Source: a virus
DNA: 64,000 nt
Virus record (IMG/VR): IMGVR_UViG_3300037104_000592
Span: 18,377 to 82,376 of that record
Direction: 5' to 3' (one strand)
Position numbers and translations under genes: made by a program. The notes under the pieces were generated by a model that saw only the letters and a program-made list of their open reading frames with translations, ran no database searches and was not told the DNA's origin. Positions 2-43,334 of this stretch are shown here, piece by piece (position 1 is the first letter of the stretch; each line of letters starts with the position of its first letter).

Positions 2-3000
2 GCAGATGAATTAATTCCAAAAAAAGATGTTGTAGACACAACTGATGATTTAGTTGTAAAGTCATATAATGTTAAATCTGCTGTAGGTAATAAAGCTCCA
101 GATCATTTATTTATAAAAAGACAAATGGATTTTAAAACAAATCTAAAGCATGATATGACTAATTCATTTAAGACATTAGAAACTAAAGAGATTCCATTAA
201 AAATTGAAAAAATGGAAATTACAGATAAACCACTTAAAAAGAATGAAATAATGAAATCAGATTTAAGTTTAGTTAAGGTTTCATTAAAAGATGAATTTGG
301 AAAAAAACATAATGTAACAATTGAAATTCCAAAAATTGATCCTAATTCAGGAACGTTTAGAGTAAATGGGAGGACCAAGTGCTTAGTTAATCAAATAGTA
401 TTATGTCCAATAACATTTTTAAAACCATATGACTCAAAATTTGAAAGTTCATATTCTACGTTTCATATTAGAAGTAAACGAACAAAGAGAATGAATTATT
501 TAGAAATTTATATGGGTTCTTTCAAAAATTTACCTTTATTAATATTGTTAACATATAGTTTTGGATTTGATGAAACAATGAAACAATATGATATAAAGTA
601 TGAAATAAAAACAGAAAAACCAAAAAAGACTGAAAAGTTTGCATGTAAAATAAATGCAACCGAATATATTTACTTTGAAAATATTAATACAGAACTAAAA
701 CAAGAATTGATTACATCATTTATAAATGAAGGTATAGATAAATATGATATAAAACATAAATTTGGAACTAAAGAATATTTAAATGATTTGATTATAAAAA
801 TCACTGGAAGAGTTAATTCTACATTTCTTTTAAATGCAAACCTTGAAAATATTATTGACCCAGTTGCAAAACAAGTTTTAATAAATAAAGGACTTCCTCA
901 TGAGTTGAAATATATAATGCAATATATGGCTACCAAAGTTGTATCAGGTTTTTCTGAAAGTAGAAATGATTTAACAAATCAAAGAATTAGAGGATCAGAA
1001 GTAATAGTTAATTTAGCTCAAAAACAAATTTTATCTGCATATACTGTATATAAAGAACAGGTTTTAGCAGGTAATAAAAATGCAGAATTTTTAGTTAATC
1101 CAACAAAAGTTTTGAGTGCATTTTTAAATTCAGAAATTGTTGTTGATATGGAATATGCAAACCCAATTGAAGAAATGGCGGTTATGACTAGAATATCTCC
1201 AGTTGGAAAATCTATTGGTGGTATTGCAAATGCAAATGCAATTCAATCAAGCGCTAGAAATGTAAGTCCATCTTATTTTGGGAATATTGATCCTCTTGAT
1301 ACACCAGAAGGACCAAATGTTGGAATAACTCAACAATTAGCTTTAGGAGCAATGGTATCATCTTCAAGAGGATTATTTACTACTAAAAAAATATCAAATG
1401 AAGAAGGATCTGGAATTTTATCTACTTCTACTTGTATGATTCCATTTATTGAAAATAATGATGGAAATAGAATTCAATTTGCAGCTAATCAATCGAGACA
1501 AATGTTACCATTAAAAAACCCTCAACCTCCAGTTATAAGATCTGGGTATGAATCTGTTTTAACGAATGTCTTATCTGATAATTTTATTAAAAAAGTTCCT
1601 GAGAGATCTAAAGTTTTATCAGTAACAAGTGACCATATAATATTAGTTGGAAAATCAGGAAAAAAATATGATATTAATTTAACTCCTATTCATTTAAGAT
1701 CTGGAACTGGTCGAGATACTTTAAGTATTTTTAAAACTAAAGTTGTTAAAGGTCAAATTGTAAATGAAGGACAAATTTTAGCAGAAGGAAGTTGTATAAA
1801 AGATGGAGCAATTTCTTTAGGTAGAACTTTATGTGTTGGGTATATGCCCTATAAAGGATATAATTTTGAAGATGGAATTATTATAAATGAAAAATTAGCA
1901 ACAAATGATATGTTAACATCTTTGCATGGGTTAGAAGAAGAAGTTTTAATTTCTGAAAAAGATAGAGTTTTATTTATAGCAAATATTGGAGATAGACTTA
2001 AAAAAGGAGAACCATTACTAAGAAAAACTATTGGAGAAATTGAGCAATTAATTGGATTTGAAGATATTGAAGATGATACAACATCAGTATATGGTCAGGA
2101 TTTAATTAAGACGAGTCCAGGTGGTCTTATTGTTGATCTTGAAGTTTTTTGTAATGTTAGTGATGAAAAATTTCCAAAATTAAAATTTTATATTGATAGA
2201 ACAAGAAAAAGATATGGTGTTTCTGCAGATCAAAAATTTGTAGTAAAGGGAGTATCTATAAAAGGAGCTCTTGTAAGATTTAAAATAGAACAAGAATTAA
2301 AAATTGAAACTGGAGATAAATTAACTAATAGATTTGGAGCTAAAGGAATCATTACATTAATAGAAAAAGATGATTTAATGCCAAGAACTCCGTGGGGAGA
2401 TAGATTAGATGTTATATTAAATCCTTTGGGAATTATTGGTAGAATGAATCTTGGACAATTATATGAGTTATATTGTGGATTAATTTCTAGAGCTTTAGTT
2501 ATTAAATTACTTTCTTCTAAAAATAAAAAGCAAGCGCTAGATGTAATGACAAATGTTTTATCAAAATTAGATACATCTAAAAATAAAGAATATACAAATA
2601 AAATGGTTGGATCTATTGCAAAATTAAGCGATAGACAATTTTCATTATTAATTACTCAGATAAAAGATAGTGGTTTTATTCCTATTATAATTCCACCATT
2701 TAAAGCTCCCAAACCTAATCAAATAATGGAAGCTTTAAAAATGTTAGATTTGAAACCAGGATACCATTTGTATCTTCCTGAGTTTGGAATTAAAACACAC
2801 GATGCAGTTCCTGTTGGATATATGTATGTTTCAAAACTAGAACATATTGGAGAGATGAAAATACATGGTAGATCAACTGGACCTGTTGTTGGAAAAACAT
2901 CACAACCAACACAAGGAAAAAGTAGAGAAGGTGGTCAGAGATTAGGAGAGTCAGATGTTCATGTTTTAATTGGATATAATTGCCCAAAACTATTATCAGA

Positions 3001-3157
3001 ATTAATGGGACCATTGTCTGACGATACTATTAGTAAAAATGAAATGATTTCTGATATAATTCAAACAGGAGAAACAACCTTCAGAGTTCCTAAAATTTCT
3101 CCTGCTAAAGATTTATTAAACGCATATTTTATTTCGTTAATGTTGGAGAATAAATAG
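2..3157 (+). CDS. rpoB: DNA-directed RNA polymerase beta subunit-like, copy 1 (5'-truncated by window edge)
   Basis: Beta motifs GNIDPLDTPEGPNVG, IPFIENNDGNR..ANQSRQ, GYNFEDGI, GDKLTNRFGAKG, DVILNPLGIIGRMNLGQ, KLEH..KIHGRSTGP, GGQRLGE. Frame is open from base 2 (ADELIPKK...), so the true start lies upstream of the ATG at 125. Confidence 0.93.
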   Translation, partial: ADELIPKKDVVDTTDDLVVKSYNVKSAVGNKAPDHLFIKRQMDFKTNLKHDMTNSFKTLETKEIPLKIEKMEITDKPLKKNEIMKSDLSLVKVSLKDEFGKKHNVTIEIPKIDPNSGTFRVNGRTKCLVNQIVLCPITFLKPYDSKFESSYSTFHIRSKRTKRMNYLEIYMGSFKNLPLLILLTYSFGFDETMKQYDIKYEIKTEKPKKTEKFACKINATEYIYFENINTELKQELITSFINEGIDKYDIKHKFGTKEYLNDLIIKITGRVNSTFLLNANLENIIDPVAKQVLINKGLPHELKYIMQYMATKVVSGFSESRNDLTNQRIRGSEVIVNLAQKQILSAYTVYKEQVLAGNKNAEFLVNPTKVLSAFLNSEIVVDMEYANPIEEMAVMTRISPVGKSIGGIANANAIQSSARNVSPSYFGNIDPLDTPEGPNVGITQQLALGAMVSSSRGLFTTKKISNEEGSGILSTSTCMIPFIENNDGNRIQFAANQSRQMLPLKNPQPPVIRSGYESVLTNVLSDNFIKKVPERSKVLSVTSDHIILVGKSGKKYDINLTPIHLRSGTGRDTLSIFKTKVVKGQIVNEGQILAEGSCIKDGAISLGRTLCVGYMPYKGYNFEDGIIINEKLATNDMLTSLHGLEEEVLISEKDRVLFIANIGDRLKKGEPLLRKTIGEIEQLIGFEDIEDDTTSVYGQDLIKTSPGGLIVDLEVFCNVSDEKFPKLKFYIDRTRKRYGVSADQKFVVKGVSIKGALVRFKIEQELKIETGDKLTNRFGAKGIITLIEKDDLMPRTPWGDRLDVILNPLGIIGRMNLGQLYELYCGLISRALVIKLLSSKNKKQALDVMTNVLSKLDTSKNKEYTNKMVGSIAKLSDRQFSLLITQIKDSGFIPIIIPPFKAPKPNQIMEALKMLDLKPGYHLYLPEFGIKTHDAVPVGYMYVSKLEHIGEMKIHGRSTGPVVGKTSQPTQGKSREGGQRLGESDVHVLIGYNCPKLLSELMGPLSDDTISKNEMISDIIQTGETTFRVPKISPAKDLLNAYFISLMLENK

Positions 3158-4197: not shown

Positions 4198-4212
4198 ATT
4201 CATTATAAAAAC

Positions 4213-6273: not shown

Positions 6274-6355
6274 TTAAAAGTAATATTGACCAAGAATTTG
6301 GTATTTATAGAAAGTTCAATTCTTTCCTTGGTCAACATATTTGGAGAATACAAAA

Positions 6356-7255
6356 ATGTCTAAATATAATTTATGTGATTATGGGTGTGGTAAACCAGCA
6401 AAGCATAGATTTAAGAATGGTAAATGGTGCTGTGAGGATTTTTTTACAAAATGTTCGAATTTTAAACCTAAAATTAAACGTTCTGGAAAAGATCATGGAA
6501 TGTTTAATAAACATCATACTCAAGAAGTTAAAGATAGAAATAGAGAAATTACAAATAATTTTACCTTATTTGAAAATCTTGAAAATATATTATGCGATTA
6601 TGGTTGTGGGAAAGAAGCAAAATATATTTTGAATAATGGAAAATATTGTTGTAATGGATATACAGTCCAATGTACAAATATTATAAAACGAACAATAGTT
6701 GGAGGATTTAAAAACAAACTTACTTTTGATAAATACAAATTGAAGCACCCAAAACTTTTTGAGGTTGAAGAGATAAGAGAAAATAATGGAATTATTGAAG
6801 TTAAATGTAAATTTTGTAGAAAATGGTTTAATCCAAAATATGAACAATTGAGAGCAAGAATTGGTTGTATAGAAAATAAAATTAGAAAAGAGAATTGCTA
6901 TTTCTTTTGTTCTGAAAACTGTAAAATAAAATCCCCTGATTATTTAAGTGGATTAAGAAAAGATCCTGTTGAAGTAAAAAATTTGAATAGTTATAGAGAA
7001 GAAGTTATTAGATTAACAGGAATTACTACAAGAAAGAATAAAAATAAAATAAAATTTATAGAGTTAAGAGGTAAAAAATTTAAAAAAGCTCTTGATCATA
7101 AATTTTCAGTAATTGATGGTTTTAAAAATAATGTTGATCCAAAAATAATGGCTAATATAAATAATTTAGAAATAATAGATGAATCTTTAAATAATTATAA
7201 AAGAGGAAAATCTTCAATAACATTAGAAGAATTATTAAAAACTTATGAAGAATAG
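6356..7255 (+). CDS. free-standing homing endonuclease (HNH-like C-terminus, two Cys-rich N-terminal repeats)
   Basis: LDHKFSVIDGF..N..NLEII...N..K nuclease-like C-terminus; two CDYGCG..A....NGK(W/Y)CC repeats; NUMOD3-like HGMFNKHHTQEVK. Confidence 0.7.
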   Translation: MSKYNLCDYGCGKPAKHRFKNGKWCCEDFFTKCSNFKPKIKRSGKDHGMFNKHHTQEVKDRNREITNNFTLFENLENILCDYGCGKEAKYILNNGKYCCNGYTVQCTNIIKRTIVGGFKNKLTFDKYKLKHPKLFEVEEIRENNGIIEVKCKFCRKWFNPKYEQLRARIGCIENKIRKENCYFFCSENCKIKSPDYLSGLRKDPVEVKNLNSYREEVIRLTGITTRKNKNKIKFIELRGKKFKKALDHKFSVIDGFKNNVDPKIMANINNLEIIDESLNNYKRGKSSITLEELLKTYEE

Positions 7256-8499: not shown

Positions 8500-9849
8500 A
8501 TGACTCCATTAGAGACAGGACAAGTAACTGTAAGTCCAGCAGAAAAAATTAAAGATATTATAGGACAATTAGTTCTAAGAGATTCCTTTTGGGGATATCT
8601 ATTTTCAAGAGTTGGAAAAATAGAAGATGAAAGTTTTCCTTCTGTTGCAGGAATTGGCGCCTTAAAAGATGGAATGCTTTATCTGTTTTATAATCCAATT
8701 ATGGTTTCAAAAATGAATGATAAAGATATTGAAGTTGTTTTATCTCATGAAGGAATCCATATCTTAAATAAACATATAAGTAGATTAATAAAAATATGGG
8801 CAGATGAAACTATAGAATCTGAAAAACAAAAGAAAATGTTAGTTTGGAATTTTGCAACTGATTTTAATGCAAATGCTATGATTAATGCACCTGATAAACT
8901 AATGGTTGGTGATAAAGAAATAAAATTATTAAAAGCTAAAGATTATAAATTAAAAGATGGTGAAACATCTGAATTCTATTATTATAAACTATTAGAAGAA
9001 TATGAGAAGCAAAAGAAAAATTTTGATAAAAGTGGATCTGGATCTTCTCATGAAAAATGGTTAATAGAAAAAGAAGGTCAGGGATCAGGAAGTGAAACAG
9101 GAGTAGGTCATGGAAAATGGACTAGTGATATAAAAGAAGTTTCAGATTTATATTCATTTGCAAGAAGAGTTGAGCAATCAACAAAAGAGATGGTTTTTAA
9201 ATCATCTAAAGCTGTTAGAAACAGAGGGACTCTACCTGGTAATTTACAAGAATTAATTAATCAATGTTTGAAGCCACCAGAAGTTCCTTATTATCAAATA
9301 ATTAAAAAATTGGTTAGAGGGTCAAGACTTGCTAAATATAAAATGGCATATACAAAAATAAATAGAAAAAGAACCTATTTATTTTTAACAGGAGAAAAGA
9401 AAGGATTACCTCAAATTTCTCCTTTCCCAGGTAAGACTAAAGATACGACTTTTAATATTTCATTAATATCTGATACATCTGGAAGTATGTCACAAGAGGA
9501 TATTTTAGAGTCTTTAAAAGGATTGAAAAGTATTATTGAAAGTGATAGATATTGTGTTACAACTGTAATTCAATGTGATACTGATGTTCGTAAAGAATAT
9601 ACAGTTAAAAGAGTAAAAGATATTGATTTTGAAATAAAAGGAAGAGGCGGAACAACTCTAGCACCTGGTTTATTTAGAGCTAAAGAATTAGATACAGATG
9701 TTAGTCTTGTTTTTACAGATGGATATTGTGATAATATAAATCAAATTGAAAGGAAGTTATTACCTAAAAAAATAATTTGGGTTCTAACTCCAGATGGTAA
9801 TAAAAATACTATTGATAAAACGGGATATATAGTAAGGATACCTAAATGA
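8500..9849 (+). CDS. metallopeptidase-like + vWA domain protein (DUF2201-type)
   Basis: HEGIH (HExxH), WNFATD..N, MIDAS DTSGS, GRGGTT, FTDG. Confidence 0.85.
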   Translation: MTPLETGQVTVSPAEKIKDIIGQLVLRDSFWGYLFSRVGKIEDESFPSVAGIGALKDGMLYLFYNPIMVSKMNDKDIEVVLSHEGIHILNKHISRLIKIWADETIESEKQKKMLVWNFATDFNANAMINAPDKLMVGDKEIKLLKAKDYKLKDGETSEFYYYKLLEEYEKQKKNFDKSGSGSSHEKWLIEKEGQGSGSETGVGHGKWTSDIKEVSDLYSFARRVEQSTKEMVFKSSKAVRNRGTLPGNLQELINQCLKPPEVPYYQIIKKLVRGSRLAKYKMAYTKINRKRTYLFLTGEKKGLPQISPFPGKTKDTTFNISLISDTSGSMSQEDILESLKGLKSIIESDRYCVTTVIQCDTDVRKEYTVKRVKDIDFEIKGRGGTTLAPGLFRAKELDTDVSLVFTDGYCDNINQIERKLLPKKIIWVLTPDGNKNTIDKTGYIVRIPK

Positions 9850-11102
9850 AAAATATATTATTTATTGAATTTTATTATATATTACCCAATAATAGTATAA
9901 TGGTATTAAATAATGGTTTTTCTCCTTGTTATAATTTATGTAATAATATAATTTCTATAGAAATAAGATTAGATGATCTTGATTACACATTAAACTTATT
10001 ACGAAAAGCTCTCACTTTAGAAAAGTTTGATATGGTATATGTATCATCTTTTTATTTATGGCATACTATTTTTGTCTATAAAATAGCATCAGAATTTCCA
10101 AATATAAATTTTATAGTGGGTGGACCAGATGCAAGTTCTTCTAAAGTAAATACAAAATTATTATTTGAACAAGATAATTTTAAATTAACATCTGAACCAT
10201 TAAGATCTATATTTCCTGAGATATATCATGAAAGAAAATGGGGCCTTAATTTTCCAAAATTAGAAAGTAATATTAAAAATATTGAATTTTCAATGTGTAA
10301 TTCTAGAAGAACCTGTAGTTGGGGGAAGTGTAAATTTTGTACATCAAATAGTAAATTTCCAAGAATAAATTCTGGAGATGACCCCATAATAAATTTTATT
10401 GAAAATATTCCTACAGAACTAAGAGAAACTAAACAATTGCTTATTCATACTCAATTTCCTGATATTACTTTTAAGGAACTAAGAGAATTAACACCCATTT
10501 TTAATTATGATATAAGAATTAATTATTGTTCAGCACTTAGAGCAGTAAAAATTGATAGACTAAAAAAATTTAAGGATGTTTTAGTTGAAATATTAAATCC
10601 TAATAGAATTTCATTTCAAATAGGGATAGAATTTTTATCAAATAGAATGTTAGAGTATATGAATAAAGGATTAACTGTTGATGATTATGTAGGAACTATT
10701 ACTTTATTACAAGAATTAAATTTTTCTATAAATTTAAATATTATTCTTGGATGGAATAATTTAACTTTTAATGATGTTAAAGAATTTAATAATGCATTGG
10801 AAAAATTTGATAGTTCTAAAGTTCGTATAGTTTTAGGTAGATTTTATGCTACTAATGAAACTAAACCTTATTTTGAAAAAGATATAATTGAGTGTGAAGA
10901 AGAAGATAGAGGAAAACTTATTTTTAATCGGTATTATTTTAAATTGTCAGATAAAAAACAAATAAGTTTTAATAATTTAATTGAAAAAATATGTAAAAAT
11001 AAGTTTGAAGTATTAAATTATAATAATAATATATTATTGTCAAAAGCTGTTTTATGTATTGATAAACTATATAAAGATGCTAATTTAACTTTTAAAACTT
11101 AA
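9846..11102 (+). CDS. B12-binding-like radical SAM protein (divergent)
   Basis: FIVGGP end of cobalamin-binding domain; CSWGKCKFC cluster motif; GIE..S.RML.YMNKG. Confidence 0.7.
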   Translation: MKNILFIEFYYILPNNSIMVLNNGFSPCYNLCNNIISIEIRLDDLDYTLNLLRKALTLEKFDMVYVSSFYLWHTIFVYKIASEFPNINFIVGGPDASSSKVNTKLLFEQDNFKLTSEPLRSIFPEIYHERKWGLNFPKLESNIKNIEFSMCNSRRTCSWGKCKFCTSNSKFPRINSGDDPIINFIENIPTELRETKQLLIHTQFPDITFKELRELTPIFNYDIRINYCSALRAVKIDRLKKFKDVLVEILNPNRISFQIGIEFLSNRMLEYMNKGLTVDDYVGTITLLQELNFSINLNIILGWNNLTFNDVKEFNNALEKFDSSKVRIVLGRFYATNETKPYFEKDIIECEEEDRGKLIFNRYYFKLSDKKQISFNNLIEKICKNKFEVLNYNNNILLSKAVLCIDKLYKDANLTFKT

Positions 11103-11113
11103 AGGATACCAAA

Positions 11114-11602
11114 ATGAAAAAAAGTGAAAATAGAAAAATTTTTGAAAACTTTAAAAAAGAACTTGATAAAATAGAAGAAAGATTTAGCGAGTTATCAGCA
11201 TCTAGAATGAACTTAGAAGACGCAATTAAAAATTTTGCATTAAAAATACTTAAGGAAGAAAAAGTTTTAACTAATTATCATTATGGAATAAATTTTAGAA
11301 ATAAAAAATATTCATTATTTGTTGATGAAGATATACGACCAGATTTCAAAAAATTAAAAGAATTATCACTATCAAGTTGGCCGAGTTTTTATATACCCGA
11401 AGATATAACAGTAAGTCTCGATGTAGATGATAATGAGTTATACATTTATGGATTTAAATCATTTCAAAGTTTAATAGATTTTGTAAATGAATATGAGTTA
11501 AAGGTTGATTTTTCAAAAATGTATGATGAGTCAAAAAATTTAAAAAATGAATTAAGAAGTATAACCAGATTGATTAAAAAATTAAGTCGGGGTAAAAATT
11601 AA
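11114..11602 (+). CDS. hypothetical protein
   Basis: ORF with RBS in gene-dense array. Confidence 0.6.
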   Translation: MKKSENRKIFENFKKELDKIEERFSELSASRMNLEDAIKNFALKILKEEKVLTNYHYGINFRNKKYSLFVDEDIRPDFKKLKELSLSSWPSFYIPEDITVSLDVDDNELYIYGFKSFQSLIDFVNEYELKVDFSKMYDESKNLKNELRSITRLIKKLSRGKN

Positions 11603-11604
11603 AT

Positions 11605-11862
11605 ATGAAAATTACATCAAAATTTCATTGCTCAACTTGTAAAACTGAAGTTGAGCTTAAAAGAGAATGTAAAATAGGACCAATGTTATTTGAGAGGCAT
11701 ACAAACCGTTGTAGTTGCTCATATTGTATGGGTCTAAAAAAGAAAATTGGATTATGGTTACCAGAAGATAAATCTTGGAATAGTTGGAGAGTTATATATT
11801 TTAAATTATTTGGATATAATTTTTATTTAAGATGGACCCTACCAAAACCTAAAGGATTGTAA
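11605..11862 (+). CDS. hypothetical Cys-rich protein
   Basis: CxxC...CxCxxC. Confidence 0.55.
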   Translation: MKITSKFHCSTCKTEVELKRECKIGPMLFERHTNRCSCSYCMGLKKKIGLWLPEDKSWNSWRVIYFKLFGYNFYLRWTLPKPKGL

Positions 11863-11863
11863 T

Positions 11864-12061
11864 ATGGGATATAATGGTGAAGATAAATGGGAAATGTATG
11901 GAAAAGAATTTAGCACTTCAGTTAGAACATTATCTGAATTAAAAAGTTTACTTATTAAACACCTTGAAAGTTTTGATGTAAATAAAGCAACTTCTAGTAT
12001 TAAATCCGAAGATTATAAAATAACTAATATTAGATTTTCTATAAAAAGGATATCAAAATGA
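11864..12061 (+). CDS. hypothetical protein
   Basis: tightly packed ORF. Confidence 0.55.
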   Translation: MGYNGEDKWEMYGKEFSTSVRTLSELKSLLIKHLESFDVNKATSSIKSEDYKITNIRFSIKRISK

Positions 12062-12543
12062 AAAGATGGGGAGTTGGGGTAAACAATTATTATTTTACAG
12101 GTTCAATAATTTTAGAAGAAGCACCTTGGTATATTTTTCTAATTGAATATTCTATTCATTTTATTTGTCATTGGATTCCGAGAATTCCTCTTTCTAAACA
12201 TATTAAAATTATACGAGAAGGGGAAGAATATACTTTAAGAGATTATTATGGAACAACTGGAGATCTTTTTCATATTTATATTTGTAGTCCAATTTTTGAA
12301 TGGTGTTGGAATAGAATTAAATGGCAGACTATTTCGTTTCCGTATACTATGTTAAAAGAACAATTTCCTGATAGATTTGAAGATGAAAATGAATATTTAG
12401 ATAAAGATAGTGATGAAGAAGAAAAAAAGAATGTAAAAGATAATCTTGAATATTCAACAAAAATAGGTGATGAATTTAAAATTGTATATGATAAACTAAG
12501 TAATATATCAACTGTAAGAATGAAAAAGTTACATTATATATAA
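12058..12543 (+). CDS. hypothetical protein
   Basis: ATGA overlap. Confidence 0.6.
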   Translation: MKRWGVGVNNYYFTGSIILEEAPWYIFLIEYSIHFICHWIPRIPLSKHIKIIREGEEYTLRDYYGTTGDLFHIYICSPIFEWCWNRIKWQTISFPYTMLKEQFPDRFEDENEYLDKDSDEEEKKNVKDNLEYSTKIGDEFKIVYDKLSNISTVRMKKLHYI

Positions 12544-12555
12544 GGAGATAAATAA

Positions 12556-13281
12556 ATGCACTTCACAGTTTTAGTTATTGGGGATGATTTTGAATCTCAG
12601 CTAGAACCTTTTTGGGAATTGGATCTACCAAAAGAAACAATAAAAGATGATTATAGAGCTGAATTTCATTCTGATGTAGTAAAAGAAATATTAGAAGAAG
12701 ATTTTATAAAATATAAGCAAGAACTAAAAAGAGATTGGGTTGATAAAGTAGTTCCTTTAGAAGATGATTATAATACTTTAGATGAATATGCATTAATTCA
12801 ACATGGATATTATTTTGATGAAAAAACAAATTCTTATGGGTATTATTTAAATCCTAATTCTAGATGGGATTGGTTTACTGTTGGTGGAAGATGGACTGGT
12901 TATTTCAAACTAAAGGAAGGACGAACTGGAGATATAGGACAACCAGGAACTGGAAACAATAAACCAATAGAAGGATATGTTGATATAGTTAGAAAAGGCG
13001 ATATAGATTTTGAAGGAATGACTAAAGATAGTATAGAAACTGCTAAAAGAAGTTGGGAAGAAGCTAAATCTGAAAAAGATAAAGCAATGAAGAACTTTAG
13101 TTATGGTATTGAAGAAAATGACACAGAAGAAACATATATAAAAAGAATGTCTAATTTTAAACCCAATTCTATTTTGTATAACGGAGAGTGGATTGAAGAT
13201 ATGCTAGATAGAGAATTTAAAGAATTAATAGAAAGAATTCCTAATAATACAATATTGACTATTGTAGATTGTCATATATGA
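12556..13281 (+). CDS. conserved phage hypothetical protein
   Basis: MHFTVLV...NPNSRWDWF.VGGRW...IVDCH pattern recognisable from phage proteins. Confidence 0.7.
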   Translation: MHFTVLVIGDDFESQLEPFWELDLPKETIKDDYRAEFHSDVVKEILEEDFIKYKQELKRDWVDKVVPLEDDYNTLDEYALIQHGYYFDEKTNSYGYYLNPNSRWDWFTVGGRWTGYFKLKEGRTGDIGQPGTGNNKPIEGYVDIVRKGDIDFEGMTKDSIETAKRSWEEAKSEKDKAMKNFSYGIEENDTEETYIKRMSNFKPNSILYNGEWIEDMLDREFKELIERIPNNTILTIVDCHI

Positions 13282-13293
13282 AAAGGTGCTTAA

Positions 13294-13500
13294 ATGGATA
13301 AAGAAAAAGAGTTTCATAGTCAACCAATTTATAAATGTATTTTACCAAATGAAGTTTGTAAATATTCATGTAGTCTTACAAGAATTGTAGTTTGTTCAAA
13401 GAAAGAATCTCCATGTTGGATTGGGACAAAAGAACATAAAGAATGGGAAAAATTTGTTTTAGGTCCAGATTCACCTGCTAGAGGATATGAATTTTATTAA
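13294..13500 (+). CDS. hypothetical Cys-rich protein
   Basis: 68-aa ORF. Confidence 0.5.
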   Translation: MDKEKEFHSQPIYKCILPNEVCKYSCSLTRIVVCSKKESPCWIGTKEHKEWEKFVLGPDSPARGYEFY

Positions 13501-17820: not shown

Positions 17821-17832
17821 AAGGATTATGTT

Positions 17833-18159
17833 ATGGAAAAGATGAAATTTTACGAATATGAGTGCAAGGATTGTAAAAATGGAAGTTTATTTGTAAACAT
17901 TCTTTTAAACTATCCTTGTCCTAATTGTTTTGATGGAAAAAGAACATGGTTAGATGATATAATTCCTCCATCAAAAAAGAAATATGAGTCATTAAAAAAA
18001 CATTCTATAAATAAAAACATACAGGAGTTAGAGTCACGATTAAAACTAGAATGTTCAAAAATTGGAATAGAAACTACATTTGAAGCAATATTTACAAAAG
18101 ATAATCATAAAACTGTATGTATAAAAGAAATTTACCCAGATATTGAGGACTTGGATTAA
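17833..18159 (+). CDS. CxxC..CxxC.G..W.D.I zinc-finger family protein
   Basis: CKDCKNG...CPNCFDGKRTWLDDII. Confidence 0.65.
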   Translation: MEKMKFYEYECKDCKNGSLFVNILLNYPCPNCFDGKRTWLDDIIPPSKKKYESLKKHSINKNIQELESRLKLECSKIGIETTFEAIFTKDNHKTVCIKEIYPDIEDLD

Positions 18160-18162
18160 ATT

Positions 18163-18513
18163 ATGAATGAAGAATTTGATGAATGTAATCAATGTAAAAA
18201 TGGAGTTATATATAATAATATAAAATTGTCATATCCTTGTCATAATTGTTTTGATGGAAAAAAATCTTGGTTGGATAGTATAATTAAACCACCAAGAGAA
18301 AAATATCACCGGTTATATCTTAAATATTTCTGGGATAATTTTTATATTTTAAGAAGTGCTATATATAGTGAATGTTCTAAAGTTGGATGTTTTGCAAAAG
18401 TTGAAATTGAACCTAGCAGATATGATAGAGATTTGAAATTTGTAGTTGATAAATCTGTTGCTATAGAATCTGCTACAAATTATATACTAAATAAGGATAA
18501 GGTGAGATTTTGA
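18163..18513 (+). CDS. zinc-finger family paralog of preceding gene
   Basis: CNQCKNG...CHNCFDGKKSWLDSII. Confidence 0.65.
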   Translation: MNEEFDECNQCKNGVIYNNIKLSYPCHNCFDGKKSWLDSIIKPPREKYHRLYLKYFWDNFYILRSAIYSECSKVGCFAKVEIEPSRYDRDLKFVVDKSVAIESATNYILNKDKVRF

Positions 18514-18514
18514 A

Positions 18515-18772
18515 ATGCCATATATAAAACCAGAACTAAGAAGAAAGTTTGATACATGTTTAACTGAACTTCAATCTAAGATTCTTGAAAAAGGTGAATT
18601 AACATATTGTTTATATAAATTATGTTCATTAGTTTTAAAAACTAAACAATATAATTATGAAAGTTTATCGTCTATTATGTCTTGTTTAGAGGACTCAAAA
18701 TTAGAGTGGTATAGGAAAAAAATGGCACCATATGAAAATATGAAGATTGATGAAAATGGAGATATATATTAA
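18515..18772 (+). CDS. conserved phage protein (MPYIK...GEL.Y...YE..KI.ENGD family)
   Basis: motif pattern. Confidence 0.65.
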   Translation: MPYIKPELRRKFDTCLTELQSKILEKGELTYCLYKLCSLVLKTKQYNYESLSSIMSCLEDSKLEWYRKKMAPYENMKIDENGDIY

Positions 18773-19167
18773 TGAATAAAAAATTTACTGGAATTGGAGT
18801 AGATGCTGGAATGATTATGATTTGTGATGAATCATATTATGAGCAATATAATTATACAAAAGATCCTTTATTAAGTCAAAAGTTTAAACTTAAAAATGGT
18901 AATTATAATTGTGATTGGAAGATACCAAAGTCTTGGAATGGAAAAGTTGAAGGAAGAGGAATTTTAACTGTAAATTCAGAAAAAGTAATTATTTCTGACC
19001 CATGTTATTGTATTGGTGGAAAAAGTGATGGGTTTCAAACTGATGGTTGGGATAGATGGTTATCTGATACAGATTACGGAAATAATATTCCAATGGGTTG
19101 TTTAATTCTTGATAAGATGGGTGGAGATGGTTGTTATACTGTTCATTTAAAGTTAAAGGAGATATAA
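18772..19167 (+). CDS. conserved hypothetical protein
   Basis: GVDAG..ICD / ISDPCY / GGDG.Y.V motifs. Confidence 0.6.
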   Translation: MNKKFTGIGVDAGMIMICDESYYEQYNYTKDPLLSQKFKLKNGNYNCDWKIPKSWNGKVEGRGILTVNSEKVIISDPCYCIGGKSDGFQTDGWDRWLSDTDYGNNIPMGCLILDKMGGDGCYTVHLKLKEI

Positions 19168-20284: not shown

Positions 20285-20298
20285 AAAAAGGATAAATA

Positions 20299-35880: not shown

Positions 35881-36756
35881 GTGTATAAAGATATAGCGAT
35901 TATAGGTTTAGGAAGTATAGGAGGTTTTTTATCGAGCAATATCATAAACATAGACACAATAAAATCTTTGGTTTTAGTTGATTATGATAGAGTAGAACTG
36001 GAAAATTTGAAAAATTCAATTTATAAAAAATCAGATGTTGGGAAATTTAAAGTTGAATGTGTATCTTCCGTTATAAAATTGTTCAATAGTGAAATAAATA
36101 TTACAGCAATAAAAGATAGATATATAGAGGGAAAAACAAAAATTCCAAAATGCGATTTAGTTATTGATTGTAGAGATTTTGTTTATGATAGAGGTTCAGA
36201 AATAAATATGAGATTATATATCTCTTCTAGACATTTAATAATTGATTGTAGAAAAGATATAAAATATCAATTACACTATGAAGGAAAATATATAGATACA
36301 TTAACAAAATCTGATATTTATTCTGCTACAGCTAATTTGTCAAGATTGATATTTAATGAAGAATTAAATGATATAATTAAAAACAATTTAGTTCATACAA
36401 TAGATATGGATGAATGCTTAAAATCAAGTGAAGAAACTTTAAATAACTATAATAATAAAATGGAAGTTGTTATGGATTATCATAAAAAGAATGATTGTTT
36501 CATAAATTTTCTTGAAAATGCAGAAAATATAATAAATTTCAATAAAAAAAGTGAAGTGAAAATTTGTCTAAACGATAAAAGATTTCCATTATCTACTAAA
36601 ATAATACCAAAAAATTATATTCAAAATGTAAATGACTTAAGTAAAAATTTTTTATCAATAATACCAGCTAAAAATCATAGTAGTTATATAGTTAAATCAA
36701 TTATAGAAAAAAATATTTGTTATGTAATTTTAATACCAGAAACAGGGGCTGCTTAA
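35881..36756 (+). CDS. second, divergent ThiF/E1-like protein
   Basis: IIGLGSIG, VDYDRVE.ENL, VGKFKV, IDCRD; lacks the RQ of NLxRQ. Confidence 0.75.
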   Translation: MYKDIAIIGLGSIGGFLSSNIINIDTIKSLVLVDYDRVELENLKNSIYKKSDVGKFKVECVSSVIKLFNSEINITAIKDRYIEGKTKIPKCDLVIDCRDFVYDRGSEINMRLYISSRHLIIDCRKDIKYQLHYEGKYIDTLTKSDIYSATANLSRLIFNEELNDIIKNNLVHTIDMDECLKSSEETLNNYNNKMEVVMDYHKKNDCFINFLENAENIINFNKKSEVKICLNDKRFPLSTKIIPKNYIQNVNDLSKNFLSIIPAKNHSSYIVKSIIEKNICYVILIPETGAA

Positions 36757-36758
36757 AA

Positions 36759-37100
36759 ATGAGCATAAAAACTATTACTATTGAGAAAAAAATAACACCA
36801 AGAATTGCTATTTATAAACGAGATGCCTTTGATATTTTAGAGGTTGATCCAGAATTCATGATAAATAAATATGAGATAACTTTAAAAGAATCAAAAGTAG
36901 TTTCTTTAAAATTATTTGCTTTACATCCAAATTGTAATCCAGATACTGGAGAATTTTGTTTAGGTCCTGACATAATTGAAAATCAAGCAAATGAATATCT
37001 TTTAGAAAAAGTTATTCCTTATACACTATCAGTATATAATTTAGATAGTTGTTATTTCAGGCCAAAAAATGGAAAAGTAAAATATGGAATAATGAAATGA
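36759..37100 (+). CDS. small E2/UBC-like conjugating enzyme
   Basis: FALHPNCNPDTGEFCLG matches E2 HPN-x5/6-G-x-(I)C-L; downstream L..YNLDS. Confidence 0.7.
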   Translation: MSIKTITIEKKITPRIAIYKRDAFDILEVDPEFMINKYEITLKESKVVSLKLFALHPNCNPDTGEFCLGPDIIENQANEYLLEKVIPYTLSVYNLDSCYFRPKNGKVKYGIMK

Positions 37101-37119: not shown

Positions 37120-37335
37120 TTGAAAAATGCAACCAGATATAAAGAGAAAGTTATTAATGTTGTATCTGATATTATTGATGAATTAGAACCAATTATAAAA
37201 AAAGCAGGGAATAGTTTTATACACTTTGCTAAAGAGTTATCAGAGGAAAAATTAGAAGAATTATTGAATAAAGGAAAAAATAAAGTAAAAAGCAAATTAA
37301 AAAAAGGAGAAAACAATGCCTCCAAAAAAGAATAA
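37120..37335 (+). CDS. hypothetical protein
   Basis: GAGGTG RBS, TTG start. Confidence 0.5.
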   Translation: MKNATRYKEKVINVVSDIIDELEPIIKKAGNSFIHFAKELSEEKLEELLNKGKNKVKSKLKKGENNASKKE

Positions 37336-37543
37336 GGATAAAGAGCAAAATTTCTTCAATGAATATTTTGAAAAAGAGATGACTAAGTTTGTAGACTCAA
37401 GAATAAAAGAAAACATTGAGAAAGATTCAAGTGAGATAGTTAGTACTTTATTTCCTTATATAGATAAAGTTATAAGTGATAAAATTAAAGAGCATATACA
37501 ATTTTTAGGAGAGACTTTAATAAAAACATTCAAACAGGAGTAA
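37316..37543 (+). CDS. hypothetical protein
   Basis: AGGAGA RBS; directly before beta'. Confidence 0.6.
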   Translation: MPPKKNKDKEQNFFNEYFEKEMTKFVDSRIKENIEKDSSEIVSTLFPYIDKVISDKIKEHIQFLGETLIKTFKQE

Positions 37544-37550: not shown

Positions 37551-40247
37551 ATGCCAAATATATTAAACATAGATAAGTTTTGTGAAAACTTAAAAGGAAT
37601 TTCTTCTTTAAAAGCTATTGATAAAAGAAAATTCCATCCAAATGGATTATTCTCAGAGCAGATATTTGGTCCTTTAAAAAATTATACATGTCAATGTGGA
37701 ATATATCATGGAGTATCCAATGCAGGTGGAACTTGCGAAATATGTGGAGTTGATATTGTTCATAGTATTGAGAGAAGAAGAAGATTTGGAAAAATTGTTC
37801 TACCTTTGAAAGTTGTTAATCCAATTTTTTATGATTTGGTTATAAAATTGGGTGGAAATATATTAAAAAAGAATATAGATGAGTTAATGAAAAATGAAAA
37901 AAGTTATTTATATAAAGATGAAAATGATTATATTGTAGAAACTAAGTTACCCCATCCTACTAATACTCAAATATGGGATAGATCTGAAGCAATTTTTGAA
38001 TTAGTAAATGGACTTGCTACAGAGTTGGGAAATAATGAAAGTGGAATGGGAATTAAAGAATGGGAATTAATAAAAAATAATATTGATTGTTTATTTATTA
38101 AAAATGTTATAGTGTTACCACCTGATTTAAGACCTGCTGCAAAAGGAATGGATAAGAACGATCAACGAATGGATAAGATAAATAGATTTTATGTTCAAAT
38201 TCTTACAAAAAAAGAAAGTATGAGAAATACTCCTATAAATATAGAAACTGATAAAAGCGTATATTACAATTTTTTCAAGCAATTACAGAGAGATGTTAAT
38301 GAATTATATGAACATATTATTTCAAAAATATCCAAGAAAGAAGGTTTAATAAGAGGAAATATTTTAGGGAAGAGAATAGATTTCTCAGGTAGAGCTGTTA
38401 TTGTTCCAGAACCTTCTTTGAAATTAGATGAATGTAGTCTTCCATATTTAATGGTTTTAGAATTATTTAAAATTCAATTATCTAAAAAACTTATAGATTT
38501 AAAACAGTTTAAATTATTAAATGAAGCAATTGATTTTGTTGATAGGTGTATAGAATTATCAGATCCTATTTTATTTAATATTTGTCAAGACATAGTTAAA
38601 AATGAAGTTTGTTTACTTAATAGACAACCAACTTTACATAGATTAGGAATGATTGGATTTAAGATAAAAACTTCTTTAGATAAAGTTATAAAGATACACC
38701 CCCTAGTTTGTCCAGGATTTAATTCGGATTTTGATGGAGATCAAATGGCAGTATATATTCCGATTTCTGATAGGACAAAAGCAGAAGTTAGAGAAAAATT
38801 TATGTCAACTAAAAATTTATCTAATCCTTCAAATGGAAGTTTAATTACTATTCCAAGTCAGGATATGGTTTTAGGAATTTATATGTTGACTACATCATCA
38901 TTTGGAGAAGTTGAATATAAAGGTGAAAAAATAACAATTGGATCCAAAATATTCAATGAATGTTTACCAAGTGATTATCCATTAATAAATGGTTCAATAA
39001 ATAATAAGATCTTAAAAGAAACATTAAATGATATTAAAAATAAATATCCAGATGAAATAGTAACTGAAGTATTAGATAAAATAAAAGAAGTTGGTTTTAG
39101 ATTTTCAACAATATATGGAACCTCAATGTCTTTGAAGCATATTTCAATTGATGGAATTGATAAAATTAAAAATGATATTTATTCATTGGATAATATTCAA
39201 GATCAATTATCTGCAATCTCTAGTAAAAAAACTGAAGATATAATGAGGAAAAACTTTAAATATTCTTATCTTATAGATTCAGGTGCAAGAGGAAAATGGG
39301 ATCAGGTAAGACAAATAATTTTAACAAGAGGATATATTTCTAATTTTCAAGGAGATATTCTCCCAACCCCAATAAAGCATAATTTAATAGAAGGTTTAGA
39401 TCAACAAGAGTTTTTTAATTCAACATACGGTTGTAGAAAAGGATTATTAGATGTTGCATTAAATACAGGTGATTCTGGATATTTATCTAGAAAATTAATT
39501 TTCACTTGTGTTAACTTAATAATTGGGGAAGAAGATGATTGTGGAACAACAGATTATCTTGATATATTAGTTACTAGTGAAAAGAAAGCAAAAATGTTAA
39601 TTGGAAGATATTATTTAAATGATGGAAATTTATCTGAAATAACAGTTGAAAATCATAAAGGATTTGTTGGAAAATTAATTCAACTTAGAAGTCCTATTTT
39701 CTGTAAAAATGAAGAACTATGTCATAAATGTTATGGAAACTTATATAAAAATTTACATAGTAAGTTTGTAGGAATTATAGCTGCTCAAGCATGTGGAGAA
39801 GCTGGAGTTCAGCTAATTTTGAGAACATTCCATACAAGTGGTGTAGCAAAGATTTCGGAAGATCAAACAGATATGAGACAGTCAGATATCGTAAGTGATT
39901 TATCTTCTGTATCAAAAGTTCTTCATAATAAAGATAAAAAGGAATATAAAGAATTAGTTTCTAATTTATTTGACTTATATATTATAAATAGAGATATTCA
40001 CCATATTCATTTTGAATGTATAATTTCTCAAATGATGTGGAAAGGTTTTAGAAAATGGAGACTTCTACCAAATAGAGATAAAATTTCTTCAGACTATTAT
40101 TCAATTCAAACAGTTCCTGAAAAAGAAAGTTGGATTGTAGGATTAGCTTTCTCAAATCCAAAAAACCATATTTTAAAAGGAATTGTTCAAGATGGAAATT
40201 ATAAAGGAATTTTTGATAAAATAATGCTAGGAGAAATACCTAGATAA
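37551..40247 (+). CDS. rpoC: DNA-directed RNA polymerase beta' subunit (compact, 898 aa)
   Basis: GLFSEQIFGP..CQCG..CEICG, LPPDLRP, R.NILGKRIDFSGRAVI, NRQPTLHR, catalytic NSDFDGDQM, PSQDM, SGARG, RKGL.D.A..T..SGYL.RKL, AAQ..GE..QL..RTFH. Confidence 0.96.
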   Translation: MPNILNIDKFCENLKGISSLKAIDKRKFHPNGLFSEQIFGPLKNYTCQCGIYHGVSNAGGTCEICGVDIVHSIERRRRFGKIVLPLKVVNPIFYDLVIKLGGNILKKNIDELMKNEKSYLYKDENDYIVETKLPHPTNTQIWDRSEAIFELVNGLATELGNNESGMGIKEWELIKNNIDCLFIKNVIVLPPDLRPAAKGMDKNDQRMDKINRFYVQILTKKESMRNTPINIETDKSVYYNFFKQLQRDVNELYEHIISKISKKEGLIRGNILGKRIDFSGRAVIVPEPSLKLDECSLPYLMVLELFKIQLSKKLIDLKQFKLLNEAIDFVDRCIELSDPILFNICQDIVKNEVCLLNRQPTLHRLGMIGFKIKTSLDKVIKIHPLVCPGFNSDFDGDQMAVYIPISDRTKAEVREKFMSTKNLSNPSNGSLITIPSQDMVLGIYMLTTSSFGEVEYKGEKITIGSKIFNECLPSDYPLINGSINNKILKETLNDIKNKYPDEIVTEVLDKIKEVGFRFSTIYGTSMSLKHISIDGIDKIKNDIYSLDNIQDQLSAISSKKTEDIMRKNFKYSYLIDSGARGKWDQVRQIILTRGYISNFQGDILPTPIKHNLIEGLDQQEFFNSTYGCRKGLLDVALNTGDSGYLSRKLIFTCVNLIIGEEDDCGTTDYLDILVTSEKKAKMLIGRYYLNDGNLSEITVENHKGFVGKLIQLRSPIFCKNEELCHKCYGNLYKNLHSKFVGIIAAQACGEAGVQLILRTFHTSGVAKISEDQTDMRQSDIVSDLSSVSKVLHNKDKKEYKELVSNLFDLYIINRDIHHIHFECIISQMMWKGFRKWRLLPNRDKISSDYYSIQTVPEKESWIVGLAFSNPKNHILKGIVQDGNYKGIFDKIMLGEIPR

Positions 40248-40268: not shown

Positions 40269-43200
40269 GTGAAATTAGTGGATATAATAAATCCAAACTA
40301 TAAAATAAATGAAGAAAACAATATATTTTCAATAAGAGAAAAAGAATATAACTTAATAAAAGATAATGTAAGAGAAATTTTAAAAGCAGCAGAAGAAGTT
40401 GGTTTTTTAGTTAATGAACTTGGAATAACGGAATCTAAATTCTCATCTGGAGAATTACAGAAAACATTAAAGAAAAATTTAGTTATAAAATTAAGACGAG
40501 GATCTTCTGACATAGACTTATCTATGGCTATTCCAAAATTAATTGATAAAAATTATGTTATAATTGGAGGAAGGAAAAAAGTTCCTTTATTTCAATTATT
40601 TGATATTCCTGTAGTTACAAGAGGAAAAACTATAAAAATCAGAACCAATGTAGCAAGTATGATGATAGTAGATGAAAAAGAATTTCCATTTATTCATCTA
40701 TCAATTTTTAATAAAAAAGTTCCATTGTCCTTAGTCATATTTGCTTACTATGGTTTAGAAGAAACAAAAAATAAATTTAGTTTAGATAAAATAGAAATTC
40801 CTGAAATAAAAACTTTACATGATAAATTAATGACAGATTTAAAAGATTTTTATGAAGGATCAGAAGGGTTTACAAAAGAAGAATTTATCAAAGAAGTTGG
40901 TAAATTCTTCTCAACAAATGATGCAAAAAATAAAGGTGAAGATTTAATTTATGCTCTAGATCTTATTTTAAAGACCGATATAATGTCAGCTAAATTTTTC
41001 AAAACTGGAAACATTTTAGATGAAATTGTTGAGGTTATTAAATTAGGTGGTTATGATGATACTGATTTAAGAAATAAAAGAGTAAGGTGTTTTGAATATG
41101 TAATTTTAGCTAAAGTATCTAAAGCAATATTTGATCTATGTATGTCAAATAGATCAACCACAAGACAAGCTAAATTTAATGTAAATTCCAGTCAAATTTT
41201 ATCAGATTGTAATGTTTCAGATATTGTTCAATTTGATTTTTCAATAAATCCAATTGAACAATTAACAAAATTAACAAGAACAAGTTTGGTTGGTCCTGGT
41301 GGGTTTGACAGAGAAAATGTTCCAGAATATCTAAGAGATATTAATCCATCAATGTTTGGAAGAATTTGTCCTGTTGATACTCCTGATAGAGATAACTGTG
41401 GAATATTACAAAGTTTATTACCAAATACACCATTAGATGAAAATTTAAAATTTACAGATGAATCATTAGAAAAATCACCTATTTCTATTCCAGTTTCTTT
41501 AGTTCCATTTTTAGAACATGATGATCAAACTAGATTACAAATGGCATCATCACAAATGAGACAGTCTATTATGTTATCAGAGTTTGAAGTTCCTATGGTT
41601 CAATCGGGATGTGAAGGGTTATATACAGATCATAGTAGCTTTATAAAAAAGGCTAGAAAAAATGGAAAAGTATCTTATGTAGATCAGTTTAATATAATTA
41701 TTGTTTATGATGATAATGATTATGATATTTTTGATGTATCAAATAGAAGAATATATGTTGAAAATATGGATGTTATGAACATATATGTTTCTAAAGGAGA
41801 TAAAGTTAAAAAAGGAACGATTATTGCTGAAAGTAATTATTGTAAAGATGGAAAAATAAATTTTGGAAGAAATTTATTAACAGCTGTTATGCCATATTAT
41901 GGATATAATTATGAGGATGCAATTGTTATTTCTGATAGATTAGTAAAAGAAAATATTTTTACATCTATTCATTATATTGATTTATCATTTGTATTACCAG
42001 CAGATAAAATTTTACTTAGTTTAGAAAAAGATAAATATAAACCCCTTCCAACTCCAAAACCATATATAGATTTGGAAGAAGGAATTACAGAAGAAGAAAA
42101 AAGAAAAAGAAAAAGAGAATTAGTTTTAAAGGGTCAACATTATGCTATAATTAAACAAATTCCATCTACTACTTTGGATTACAATTCTATTTTCGAGGAA
42201 GAGATACCTTTAACTGCTAAAAGAGATATTTTAGTAACTGAAGTAAATATTTATCCTAATAAATGGAATGACTCAATTCCAAAATTTAATGAATGGATAG
42301 ATAAAAAATCTAAAGAACAAATAGATCAAGAGAATAAATTTAAGAGAATTATTTATGAAAATCTACCAAAAAGAAATGCTGATCAATATATAAGAGATCA
42401 TAATCTAGATAGATTTTCTCATATTGGAAAGTTTAAAATTAAAGGTGAAGAAATAAAAGGAACTTTAATTGAGATGTTTGGTTTTTATGTTAGACCAATT
42501 ACTATTGGAGATAAGATTGGAAACAGACATGGAAATAAAGGTGTAATTTCAAAAATAGTTCCACATAATCTTATGCCTAAATTAGAAGATGGAAGAAATG
42601 TTGATATATGTATAAATCCTTTAGGTGTTCCTTCGAGAATGAATGTTGGTCAAATATTTGAGTTACATTCTGCAATGTCTTTATATGATTTAAAAAAGAC
42701 TATGTTAAAAATGATAAAAGAAGGAAAATCCAAAGACGAATTGAAAACATATATTTTAAATTATATTAAAATCATTGATAATACAGAAAATAATTGGTAT
42801 TATAAACAGTTTGAAAAAAATATAAAAACTATAAATAAAAAGTTTATAGAAGATCTTACTATTCTTGCTCCACCATTTGAATCATCAACTAGAAAAATGA
42901 TATTAGATGCTTGTGAATATACAAATACCAAAACTGAATTTAAAGTATACGAACCATATGAAAAAATTGATATTCATGATATAGCTTGTGGGTTTATATA
43001 TTTCTTTAGAATGGTTCACATAGCTGAAAATAGATTAGCAGCTAGAGGGATTGGTTCATATGGAAGAAGAACAATGCAACCAGGTGGTGGTCGTAAACAC
43101 AAAGGAGGACAACGTTGTGGAGAGATGGAAATCGCAGCAATCATTGCTCATGGTGGACTTGAAAATCTATATGAAACTTTAACAACCAAGTCAGATTGTA

Positions 43201-43334
43201 TAGATCTTAAAAATAAACATATTAAGCAAGAAATAGGATCAGATTTCTTTAGAGAAAAAGAAGGAGATATTATAAAACCTGAAGCAGTTCAGCTTTTAGA
43301 GAATTATCTAACTGTTTTGGGTATAGAAAAATAA
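40269..43334 (+). CDS. rpoB: DNA-directed RNA polymerase beta subunit-like, copy 2
   Basis: GPGG, GRICPVDTP, PFLEHDD..R..M...MRQ, GYNYEDAI, GDKIGNRHGNKG, NPLGVPSRMNVGQ, GGQRCGEME. Confidence 0.95.
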   Translation: MKLVDIINPNYKINEENNIFSIREKEYNLIKDNVREILKAAEEVGFLVNELGITESKFSSGELQKTLKKNLVIKLRRGSSDIDLSMAIPKLIDKNYVIIGGRKKVPLFQLFDIPVVTRGKTIKIRTNVASMMIVDEKEFPFIHLSIFNKKVPLSLVIFAYYGLEETKNKFSLDKIEIPEIKTLHDKLMTDLKDFYEGSEGFTKEEFIKEVGKFFSTNDAKNKGEDLIYALDLILKTDIMSAKFFKTGNILDEIVEVIKLGGYDDTDLRNKRVRCFEYVILAKVSKAIFDLCMSNRSTTRQAKFNVNSSQILSDCNVSDIVQFDFSINPIEQLTKLTRTSLVGPGGFDRENVPEYLRDINPSMFGRICPVDTPDRDNCGILQSLLPNTPLDENLKFTDESLEKSPISIPVSLVPFLEHDDQTRLQMASSQMRQSIMLSEFEVPMVQSGCEGLYTDHSSFIKKARKNGKVSYVDQFNIIIVYDDNDYDIFDVSNRRIYVENMDVMNIYVSKGDKVKKGTIIAESNYCKDGKINFGRNLLTAVMPYYGYNYEDAIVISDRLVKENIFTSIHYIDLSFVLPADKILLSLEKDKYKPLPTPKPYIDLEEGITEEEKRKRKRELVLKGQHYAIIKQIPSTTLDYNSIFEEEIPLTAKRDILVTEVNIYPNKWNDSIPKFNEWIDKKSKEQIDQENKFKRIIYENLPKRNADQYIRDHNLDRFSHIGKFKIKGEEIKGTLIEMFGFYVRPITIGDKIGNRHGNKGVISKIVPHNLMPKLEDGRNVDICINPLGVPSRMNVGQIFELHSAMSLYDLKKTMLKMIKEGKSKDELKTYILNYIKIIDNTENNWYYKQFEKNIKTINKKFIEDLTILAPPFESSTRKMILDACEYTNTKTEFKVYEPYEKIDIHDIACGFIYFFRMVHIAENRLAARGIGSYGRRTMQPGGGRKHKGGQRCGEMEIAAIIAHGGLENLYETLTTKSDCIDLKNKHIKQEIGSDFFREKEGDIIKPEAVQLLENYLTVLGIEK

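Follow-up and report, generated by a model that had tools for sequence, protein, structure and literature searches.

How many RNA polymerases (RNAPs) does a phage encode when two divergent beta subunits and only one beta' lie in view? The question is raised by a 64,000-nucleotide stretch of viral DNA (hereafter the window), bases 18377-82376 of the 82,376-bp IMG/VR contig IMGVR_UViG_3300037104_000592, for which the CheckV completeness estimate is 26%. An earlier sequence-only reading of the window recorded two unsplit beta genes and one compact beta', and proposed either separate virion and non-virion enzymes or a single beta' that exchanges beta partners to change promoter specificity. Here we describe two complete beta'-beta gene pairs on this contig, pair 1 (beta'-1 and beta-1) and pair 2 (beta'-2 and beta-2), with intact catalytic motifs and conserved across a large uncultured clade. 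The explanation that we favour, with modest confidence, is that they form two separate RNAP cores dividing the infection in time, pair 1 corresponding to the virion RNAP (vRNAP) and pair 2 to the non-virion RNAP (nvRNAP) of phiKZ/AR9-type phages. Genome records are given G numbers (G000 being the source contig), and loci of the source contig or its relatives are given L numbers.

Two RNAP gene pairs on one contig

The contig is an AT-rich jumbo-phage fragment from an uncultured lineage, with a window composition of 25-29% G+C and all open reading frames (ORFs) of at least 150 amino acids on the plus strand. Pfam searches confirmed the three RNAP genes read from the window, beta-1, beta'-2 and beta-2 (Table 1), as well as their order, beta' before beta, which is the reverse of the bacterial one. 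The N-terminal extension of beta-1 beyond the window edge was equally real, the complete gene starting at contig position 17439, 938 nt upstream of the window. The count of a single beta' was wrong: a search of the whole contig with a model of the beta' catalytic domain recovered a second gene, beta'-1, approximately 2 kb upstream of the window. The contig encodes two beta'-to-beta pairs with about 37 kb between them, and partner swapping by one beta' is refuted because this second DxDGD-bearing beta' lies directly upstream of beta-1.

The Mg-binding loop is intact in both beta' subunits (NADFDGD at residue 368 of beta'-1; NSDFDGD at residue 391 of beta'-2, where its relatives show NADFDGD), and both retain the trigger-loop FH motif. 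All beta signatures quoted in the earlier reading were found in the alignment. Subunit beta-1 carries TPEGPNVG, GDKLTNRFGAKG, GYNFED and KLEH..KIHGR, and beta-2 carries TPDRDNCG, GDKIGNRHGNKG, GYNYED and RMVH..RLAAR, with the GDK..KG and ED motifs present in both. The paralogues share 30.6% (beta'-1 versus beta'-2) and 26% (beta-1 versus beta-2) identity, and the N-terminus of beta-1 is approximately 350 residues longer than that of beta-2. Pair 2 is closer to solved beta' chains (371 bits) than pair 1 (210 bits), and beta'-2 retains the N-terminal Zn ribbon. PHROG and Pfam searches returned no match for the beta-1 N-terminal extension (residues 1-480), nor for the C-terminal 231 amino acids of beta'-1, the beta'-2 tail or the beta-2 N-terminus. 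The reported lack of alpha and sigma was upheld, as neither the contig nor two complete relatives gave a match to the Sigma70_r2 and alpha (RNA_pol_L) profiles, which did match in control genomes.

Table 1. Coordinates of the RNAP genes and of the neighbouring features discussed in the text.
Feature	Window position	Contig or locus position	Strand	Description
beta'-1		G000:C1:13375-16407 = L007:1375-4407	+	1010 aa, outside window; Rpb1_2 1.7e-30, Rpb1_5 1.4e-22
ORF344		16408-17442 = L007:4408-5442	+	344 aa, between beta'-1 and beta-1, outside window
beta-1	2-3157	17439-21533 (full gene)	+	last 1051 of 1364 aa in window; Pfam Rpb2_6 9.5e-45, Rpb2_3, Rpb2_7
Conserved 75-aa ORF	37316-37543		+	ends 8 nt before beta'-2
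beta'-2	37551-40247		+	898 aa; Pfam Rpb1_2 1.2e-32, Rpb1_5, Rpb1_3
beta-2	40269-43334		+	1021 aa, GTG start; Pfam Rpb2_6 2.8e-49, Rpb2_3, Rpb2_7
Homing-endonuclease genes	6341-7255, 8500-9849, 21915-22733	10754-11569, 12614-13375, 16408-17442
E2-like minimal ORF	36717-37100			HPN..C motif
Topoisomerase II/IV subunit A homologue	15298-17820			840 aa

Conservation and membership of the mReC lineage

In IMG/VR, beta'-2 has over 200 relatives (54-74% identity) and beta'-1 roughly two dozen (38-58%) besides a few remoter ones near 30%; at least a dozen of the contigs carry both. Two of these genomes, G001 (312 kb) and G002 (277 kb), are complete with direct terminal repeats and encode two beta' and two beta subunits each, as do the near-complete G003 and G004. 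In all four, each beta' precedes its beta, 34-40 kb separate the two pairs and the subunit sizes match those of the contig (approximately 1002/1373 and 908/1004 amino acids for beta'/beta). Two beta' genes each were also found in the more distant G012, G014 and G016, whose pair 1-like beta' are 29-38% identical, G016 being a complete genome of 284 kb with terminal repeats. Every complete relative checked (277, 284 and 312 kb) carries two beta' genes. The two pairs of G014 (L112:548-18127) stand in tandem within approximately 18 kb, in the order beta' (906 amino acids), a beta-like ORF of 601 amino acids, beta' (1016 amino acids) and a beta split into 1150 and 276 amino acids, which is how genes would be arranged shortly after duplicating locally. 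The phage collection searched contained no cultured representative of the clade, all matches being below 30% identity. The T4 gp23-type major capsid protein (PF07068) matched in G001-G004 at 1e-32 to 4e-35.

The sequence-only reading had pointed to a known caudoviral lineage with deep-branching, unsplit beta and beta', and rightly so. The contig belongs to that lineage, mReC (Weinheimer and Aylward, 2020; PMC7481178), because its relatives carry the gp23-type capsid and because G002 (IMGVR_UViG_3300001782_000005) is matched, by taxon id 3300001782, to WOR52_10000459 (277,131 bp, GC 25.7%), which is listed in Supplementary Data 1 and 2 of that paper. The beta'-2 protein is 61% identical to its homologue in G002, the record of locus L013. 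Members of mReC are uncultured, partly jumbo-sized, and encode beta and beta' as unsplit ORFs of at least 800 amino acids with NADxDGD, branching outside cellular RNAPs. Both pairs on the contig agree in being single ORFs of such length (1010/1364 and 898/1021 amino acids) with this loop (NSDFDGD in beta'-2), and their separation from cellular homologues was seen against 13 bacterial beta', the cellular sequences included in the tree.

The mReC paper used RNAP as a single marker for each contig. In Supplementary Data 2 it lists '_a_' sets (beta approximately 1365, beta' approximately 1002 amino acids) and '_b_' sets (approximately 1007 and 904 amino acids), in some cases on one contig (PMC7481178). 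In the sections of its text that were searched, the presence of two enzymes in a genome is not taken up, and we found no later paper on the two mReC RNAP sets in the literature searched; phiKZ-type RNAPs were omitted from the trees of that study according to Sokolova et al. (2020; PMC7598289). The two sets are already in published tables and their meaning appears undescribed. They amount to a two-polymerase strategy in the style of phiKZ, but with unsplit genes, within a published lineage. The point of interest beyond those tables is a possible true orthology of the two pairs to vRNAP and nvRNAP.

Unsplit, deep-branching beta' subunits also occur in the cultured Rhizobium phage RHph_TM30, Yersinia phage GN1 and Vibrio phage Va2 (25-28% identity), and in GN1 beta' directly precedes beta as in the contig pairs. 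These three phages differ in having one beta' gene each, and they fall outside pairs 1 and 2 in the beta' tree described below.

Resemblance to the phiKZ/AR9-type enzymes

Phages of the phiKZ/AR9/PBS1 type carry two paralogous beta/beta' sets per genome, and their enzymes lack alpha, sigma and omega (Sokolova et al., 2020; PMC7598289), to which our negative sigma and alpha searches correspond. A further likeness lies in the greater divergence of one set, whose beta has a long N-terminal extension. Gene order also agrees in the phiKZ-like genomes G008, G010 and G011, where a gp180-type virion beta' N-terminal gene lies directly upstream of a gp178-type beta gene. The main structural difference is that phiKZ-type enzymes come in four to five pieces, whereas all four genes on the contig encode single polypeptides and only some relatives split beta'-1 or beta-1.

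The top PHROG matches of all four proteins were phrog_24349 and phrog_25354, unannotated families of approximately 1200 positions, and the following comparison concerns annotated families only. These include phrog_2986 (phiKZ gp180, virion beta' N-terminal part), phrog_2987 (phiKZ gp55, its non-virion equivalent), phrog_3015 (phiKZ gp74), phrog_3295 (phiKZ gp71/73, non-virion beta), phrog_3148 (the 1474-amino-acid phiKZ virion beta ORF, a gene to which we assigned the name gp178) and phrog_3233 (a 231-amino-acid phiKZ ORF at 154277-154948, with one copy per phiKZ-like genome). Subunit beta'-1 scored 147.5 bits with the virion-type phrog_2986 and 88 bits with the non-virion type, while beta'-2 scored 84 bits with the virion type and 132.7 bits with the non-virion-type phrog_2987. 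For beta-1 the virion-type scores were 141-156 bits (phrog_3148) and 42 bits (phrog_3233), against 133-135 bits for the non-virion type. For beta-2 they were 85.4 bits (phrog_3148) with no phrog_3233 match, against 131.6 bits for the non-virion-type phrog_3295. The preferences are reciprocal, pair 1 going to virion and pair 2 to non-virion families.

Direct searches, which covered phiKZ, AR9 and Staphylococcus phage Madawaska, gave the same picture. The N-terminus of beta'-1 matched phiKZ gp180, AR9 gp145 and Madawaska gp113 (all annotated as virion proteins) at 70-85 bits, compared with 21-30 bits or nothing for beta'-2, and AR9 gp270 and phiKZ gp55 were matched better by beta'-2 than by beta'-1. 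The virion-side preference of pair 1 is contrary to what simple divergence would predict, pair 2 being the more bacterial-like. As regards the reference itself, the RefSeq phiKZ gp180 ORF (NC_004629, L184:787-2259; 490 amino acids) ends inside the catalytic motif GADFDGD. An IMG/VR genome (L201) matches these 490 residues at 100% identity and has a 551-amino-acid ORF running through the motif, and the reference may have an annotation or sequence problem.

Phylogeny, rare changes and gene fission

A full-length beta' alignment was dropped because the short phiKZ pieces were scattered in it, and sequences were instead cut 50 residues after NADFDGD. The maximum-likelihood tree of this N-terminal part (59 rows, 444 columns, LG+C20 PMSF, full search; supports given as ultrafast bootstrap/SH-aLRT) parts 13 bacterial beta' from all phage beta' by a branch with 100/99 support. 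Within the phage sequences, vRNAP branches from inside the group formed by pair 1 and its distant relatives (84/91, 94/90 and 93/87), and monophyly is recovered both for pair 2 and for the non-virion clade.

Several rare changes are shared by pair 1, its distant relatives and vRNAP. All have lost the N-terminal Zn ribbon of beta', all have an insertion of 40-100 amino acids at one beta' site, with some sequence likeness, and all have a deletion of about 10 amino acids in beta, at a place still occupied in pair 2 and nvRNAP by a YKPxP-like segment. A gene-fission site is held in common as well. In seven relatives (L096, L099, L100 and L103-L106; beta'-1 at approximately 10001-13000 of most loci) beta'-1 is encoded by two ORFs, of about 780 and 228 amino acids, the cut falling approximately 25 residues after the trigger-loop motif FHxGG. 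In AR9 and Madawaska the virion beta' C-terminal subunits stop 19 residues past the FH motif, whereas their non-virion counterparts continue for more than 230 residues past it; the cut in the relatives and the end of the AR9-type virion subunit are at the same trigger-loop site.

The junctions between the beta'-1 halves take different forms: a stop followed by a ribosome-binding site and restart (L096, L099, L100), a homologue of ORF344 (L103), a small ORF (L104, L106) or an 890-nt spacer (L105). In L102 (3016-4146) beta'-1 is uninterrupted in frame and contains a 377-amino-acid insert at residue 752, in the trigger loop, with a LAGLIDADG_3 match (7.9e-7) and a weak intein-splicing match, features that identify it as a LAGLIDADG intein in a phage RNAP beta'. 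L107 (record G012) has a similar in-frame insert of 387 amino acids at the same residue. Fission is also seen in beta-1. In L108 (13040-17160) the gene is split into 315 and 1003 amino acids, making the N-terminal extension a separate protein, and in L092 (4069-8179) it is split into 465 and 909 amino acids, the two ORFs overlapping by 17 nt, possibly through a frameshift or an error of assembly.

Alternative explanations

If the two pairs act as we favour, each core would be made from its own adjacent beta' and beta, with no homologue of alpha, sigma or omega. Pair 1, the more divergent, would most likely be the vRNAP counterpart and would be packaged in the virion. Pair 2, closer to bacterial RNAP, would most likely be the nvRNAP counterpart. 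One enzyme would serve the early genes and the other the middle and late genes, through different promoter recognition. We judge the correspondence of pair 1 to vRNAP and of pair 2 to nvRNAP to be more probable than not, if unproven, because profile scores, the beta' N-terminal tree and shared indels suggest it. Of the two alternatives raised by the sequence-only reading, that of virion and non-virion enzymes is the better supported, there being two pairs, conserved and with reciprocal family preferences; their orthology to the phiKZ-type enzymes is unproven. The fuller version, in which the pairs are unsplit orthologues of vRNAP and nvRNAP, the duplication predates the separation of gp23-capsid, phiKZ-like and AR9-like phages, and the fragmented subunits are derived, is put forward tentatively.

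A number of results weigh against this correspondence. The beta' N-terminal tree does not recover a sister relationship between pair 2 and the non-virion clade, and the approximately unbiased (AU) test fails to reject the best tree that keeps vRNAP and nvRNAP together (delta log-likelihood 17.3, p 0.126). A tree of the C-terminal half of beta (44 rows, 656 columns, with a long-branch warning) joins the long vRNAP and nvRNAP branches with 100/99 support; forcing pair 1 with vRNAP costs just 0.12 log-likelihood units on the same data (p 0.5), and we therefore treat this tree as uninformative. The nvRNAP beta' of AR9 and Madawaska likewise lack the Zn ribbon, and one or two short inserts are common to vRNAP and nvRNAP, in places where other lineages vary too. 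The virion also differs, since relatives of the contig have the gp23-type capsid, which was not found in the phiKZ-like genomes searched. Chimallin (phrog_4795) was absent at E<=0.1 from G000-G004, G012 and G016, while the phiKZ, G005 and G009 controls matched at 1e-78 to 1e-232; by the chimallin criterion this is not a nucleus-forming Chimalliviridae-type phage. The gp68-type fifth subunit (phrog_3209) had no match in the same seven records; phiKZ, G005 and G009 matched, yet AR9, which has a gp68 homologue (Sokolova et al., 2020; PMC7598289), was missed, making this a weak negative.

Much of this would suit an independent duplication within mReC, with neither enzyme packaged, the host RNAP transcribing early genes and the phage enzymes acting on middle and late genes or on different DNA states. 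The AU result, the grouping of vRNAP with nvRNAP in the unconstrained beta tree, the tandem pairs of G014, and a T4-like virion module without any phiKZ-specific partner found are all compatible with it. We nevertheless regard it as rather unlikely, since reciprocal profile and BLAST preferences in both subunits weigh against it, as do the indels and trigger-loop cut site that pair 1 shares with vRNAP, and since the beta' N-terminal tree nests vRNAP in pair 1 although long-branch attraction should pull it toward nvRNAP. That one pair is no longer a transcriptase, decaying or re-used, and leaves a single functional RNAP is very improbable. Pair 1 is indeed much further from bacterial RNAP and is often interrupted in relatives, but both pairs keep full-length frames and catalytic motifs, and well over a hundred contigs conserve them at 47-74% identity. 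Where the genes are interrupted, the cause is an intein or a clean stop/restart junction that has a ribosome-binding site, not decay. We give almost no credence to a single beta' serving both betas or to a recent capture of host rpoBC. The former had its basis in the limited view of the window, where one beta' is visible, and is contradicted by the second beta' upstream of beta-1 and by the two beta' of every complete relative checked. As for capture, the best bacterial matches of the phage beta' show a flat 29-33% identity across many phyla and the phage genes form a clade apart from the bacterial one, which refutes a recent origin from a host.

Neighbouring genes and mobile elements

Both pairs sit among replication, recombination, topoisomerase and many homing-endonuclease genes, and the gene context around either pair gives no division into structural and replication modules. 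The density of homing-endonuclease genes is unusually high, and several adjoin RNAP genes (Table 1). They comprise a GIY-YIG type, a NUMOD3 plus Vsr/DUF559 type, ORF344-type HNH and a paralogue, and two further HNH genes. The ORF344 translation shows a Cys-rich region with CxxC pairs and a C-terminal HNH-like motif, and a Pfam search gave no significant match. Its homologues lie at other RNAP gene junctions in L103, L087, L022 and L074, some of them between beta'-2 and beta-2. As they occupy different junctions in different relatives, ORF344 is probably a mobile HNH endonuclease gene, HNH being assigned by motif reading. A role as an RNAP accessory subunit was considered and rejected, given these varying junctions and given that most relatives have no ORF344 at the position seen in the contig.

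Upstream of beta'-2, most of the 61 distinct relatives examined have an ORF of 64-105 amino acids with a common C-terminal motif. The 75-amino-acid version on the contig has no family match and is a possible small partner of the pair 2 enzyme (RNAP-2). A k-mer search for promoter motifs upstream of both beta' genes yielded no usable motif, the region upstream of beta'-2 being this conserved small ORF. The E2-like minimal ORF listed in Table 1 also occurs directly upstream of beta'-2 in L124, L125, L128 and L148, and on account of this recurrence we regard a ubiquitin-like module as syntenic with RNAP-2 across the clade. In the topoisomerase subunit A homologue the topoisomerase domain begins only at about residue 460, and residues 207-251 give an HNH-like match, which might reflect insertion of a mobile domain or of an intein.

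Implications

According to a 2026 review (PMC13282480), it is not known if vRNAP and nvRNAP descend from a duplication within an ancestral jumbo phage or were acquired on two occasions, and split phage subunits have been argued to be ancestral to the fused cellular ones (Iyer et al., 2021; PMC7824862). A large, well-sampled clade in which both enzymes are full-length bears on both questions, and it supplies long, alignable and slowly evolving sequences for placing the phiKZ-type enzymes on the tree. Enzymes encoded by two genes would also be much easier to reconstitute than the phiKZ enzymes of four to five pieces, which would help studies of sigma-independent promoter recognition. The relatives split at the AR9-type trigger-loop site are natural gene-fission intermediates. 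If the pairs are indeed unsplit orthologues of vRNAP and nvRNAP, the subunit splits of phiKZ and AR9 would have arisen through mobile elements (inteins and HNH genes) at permissive sites such as the tip of the trigger loop, and this clade would show gene fission in its intermediate states.

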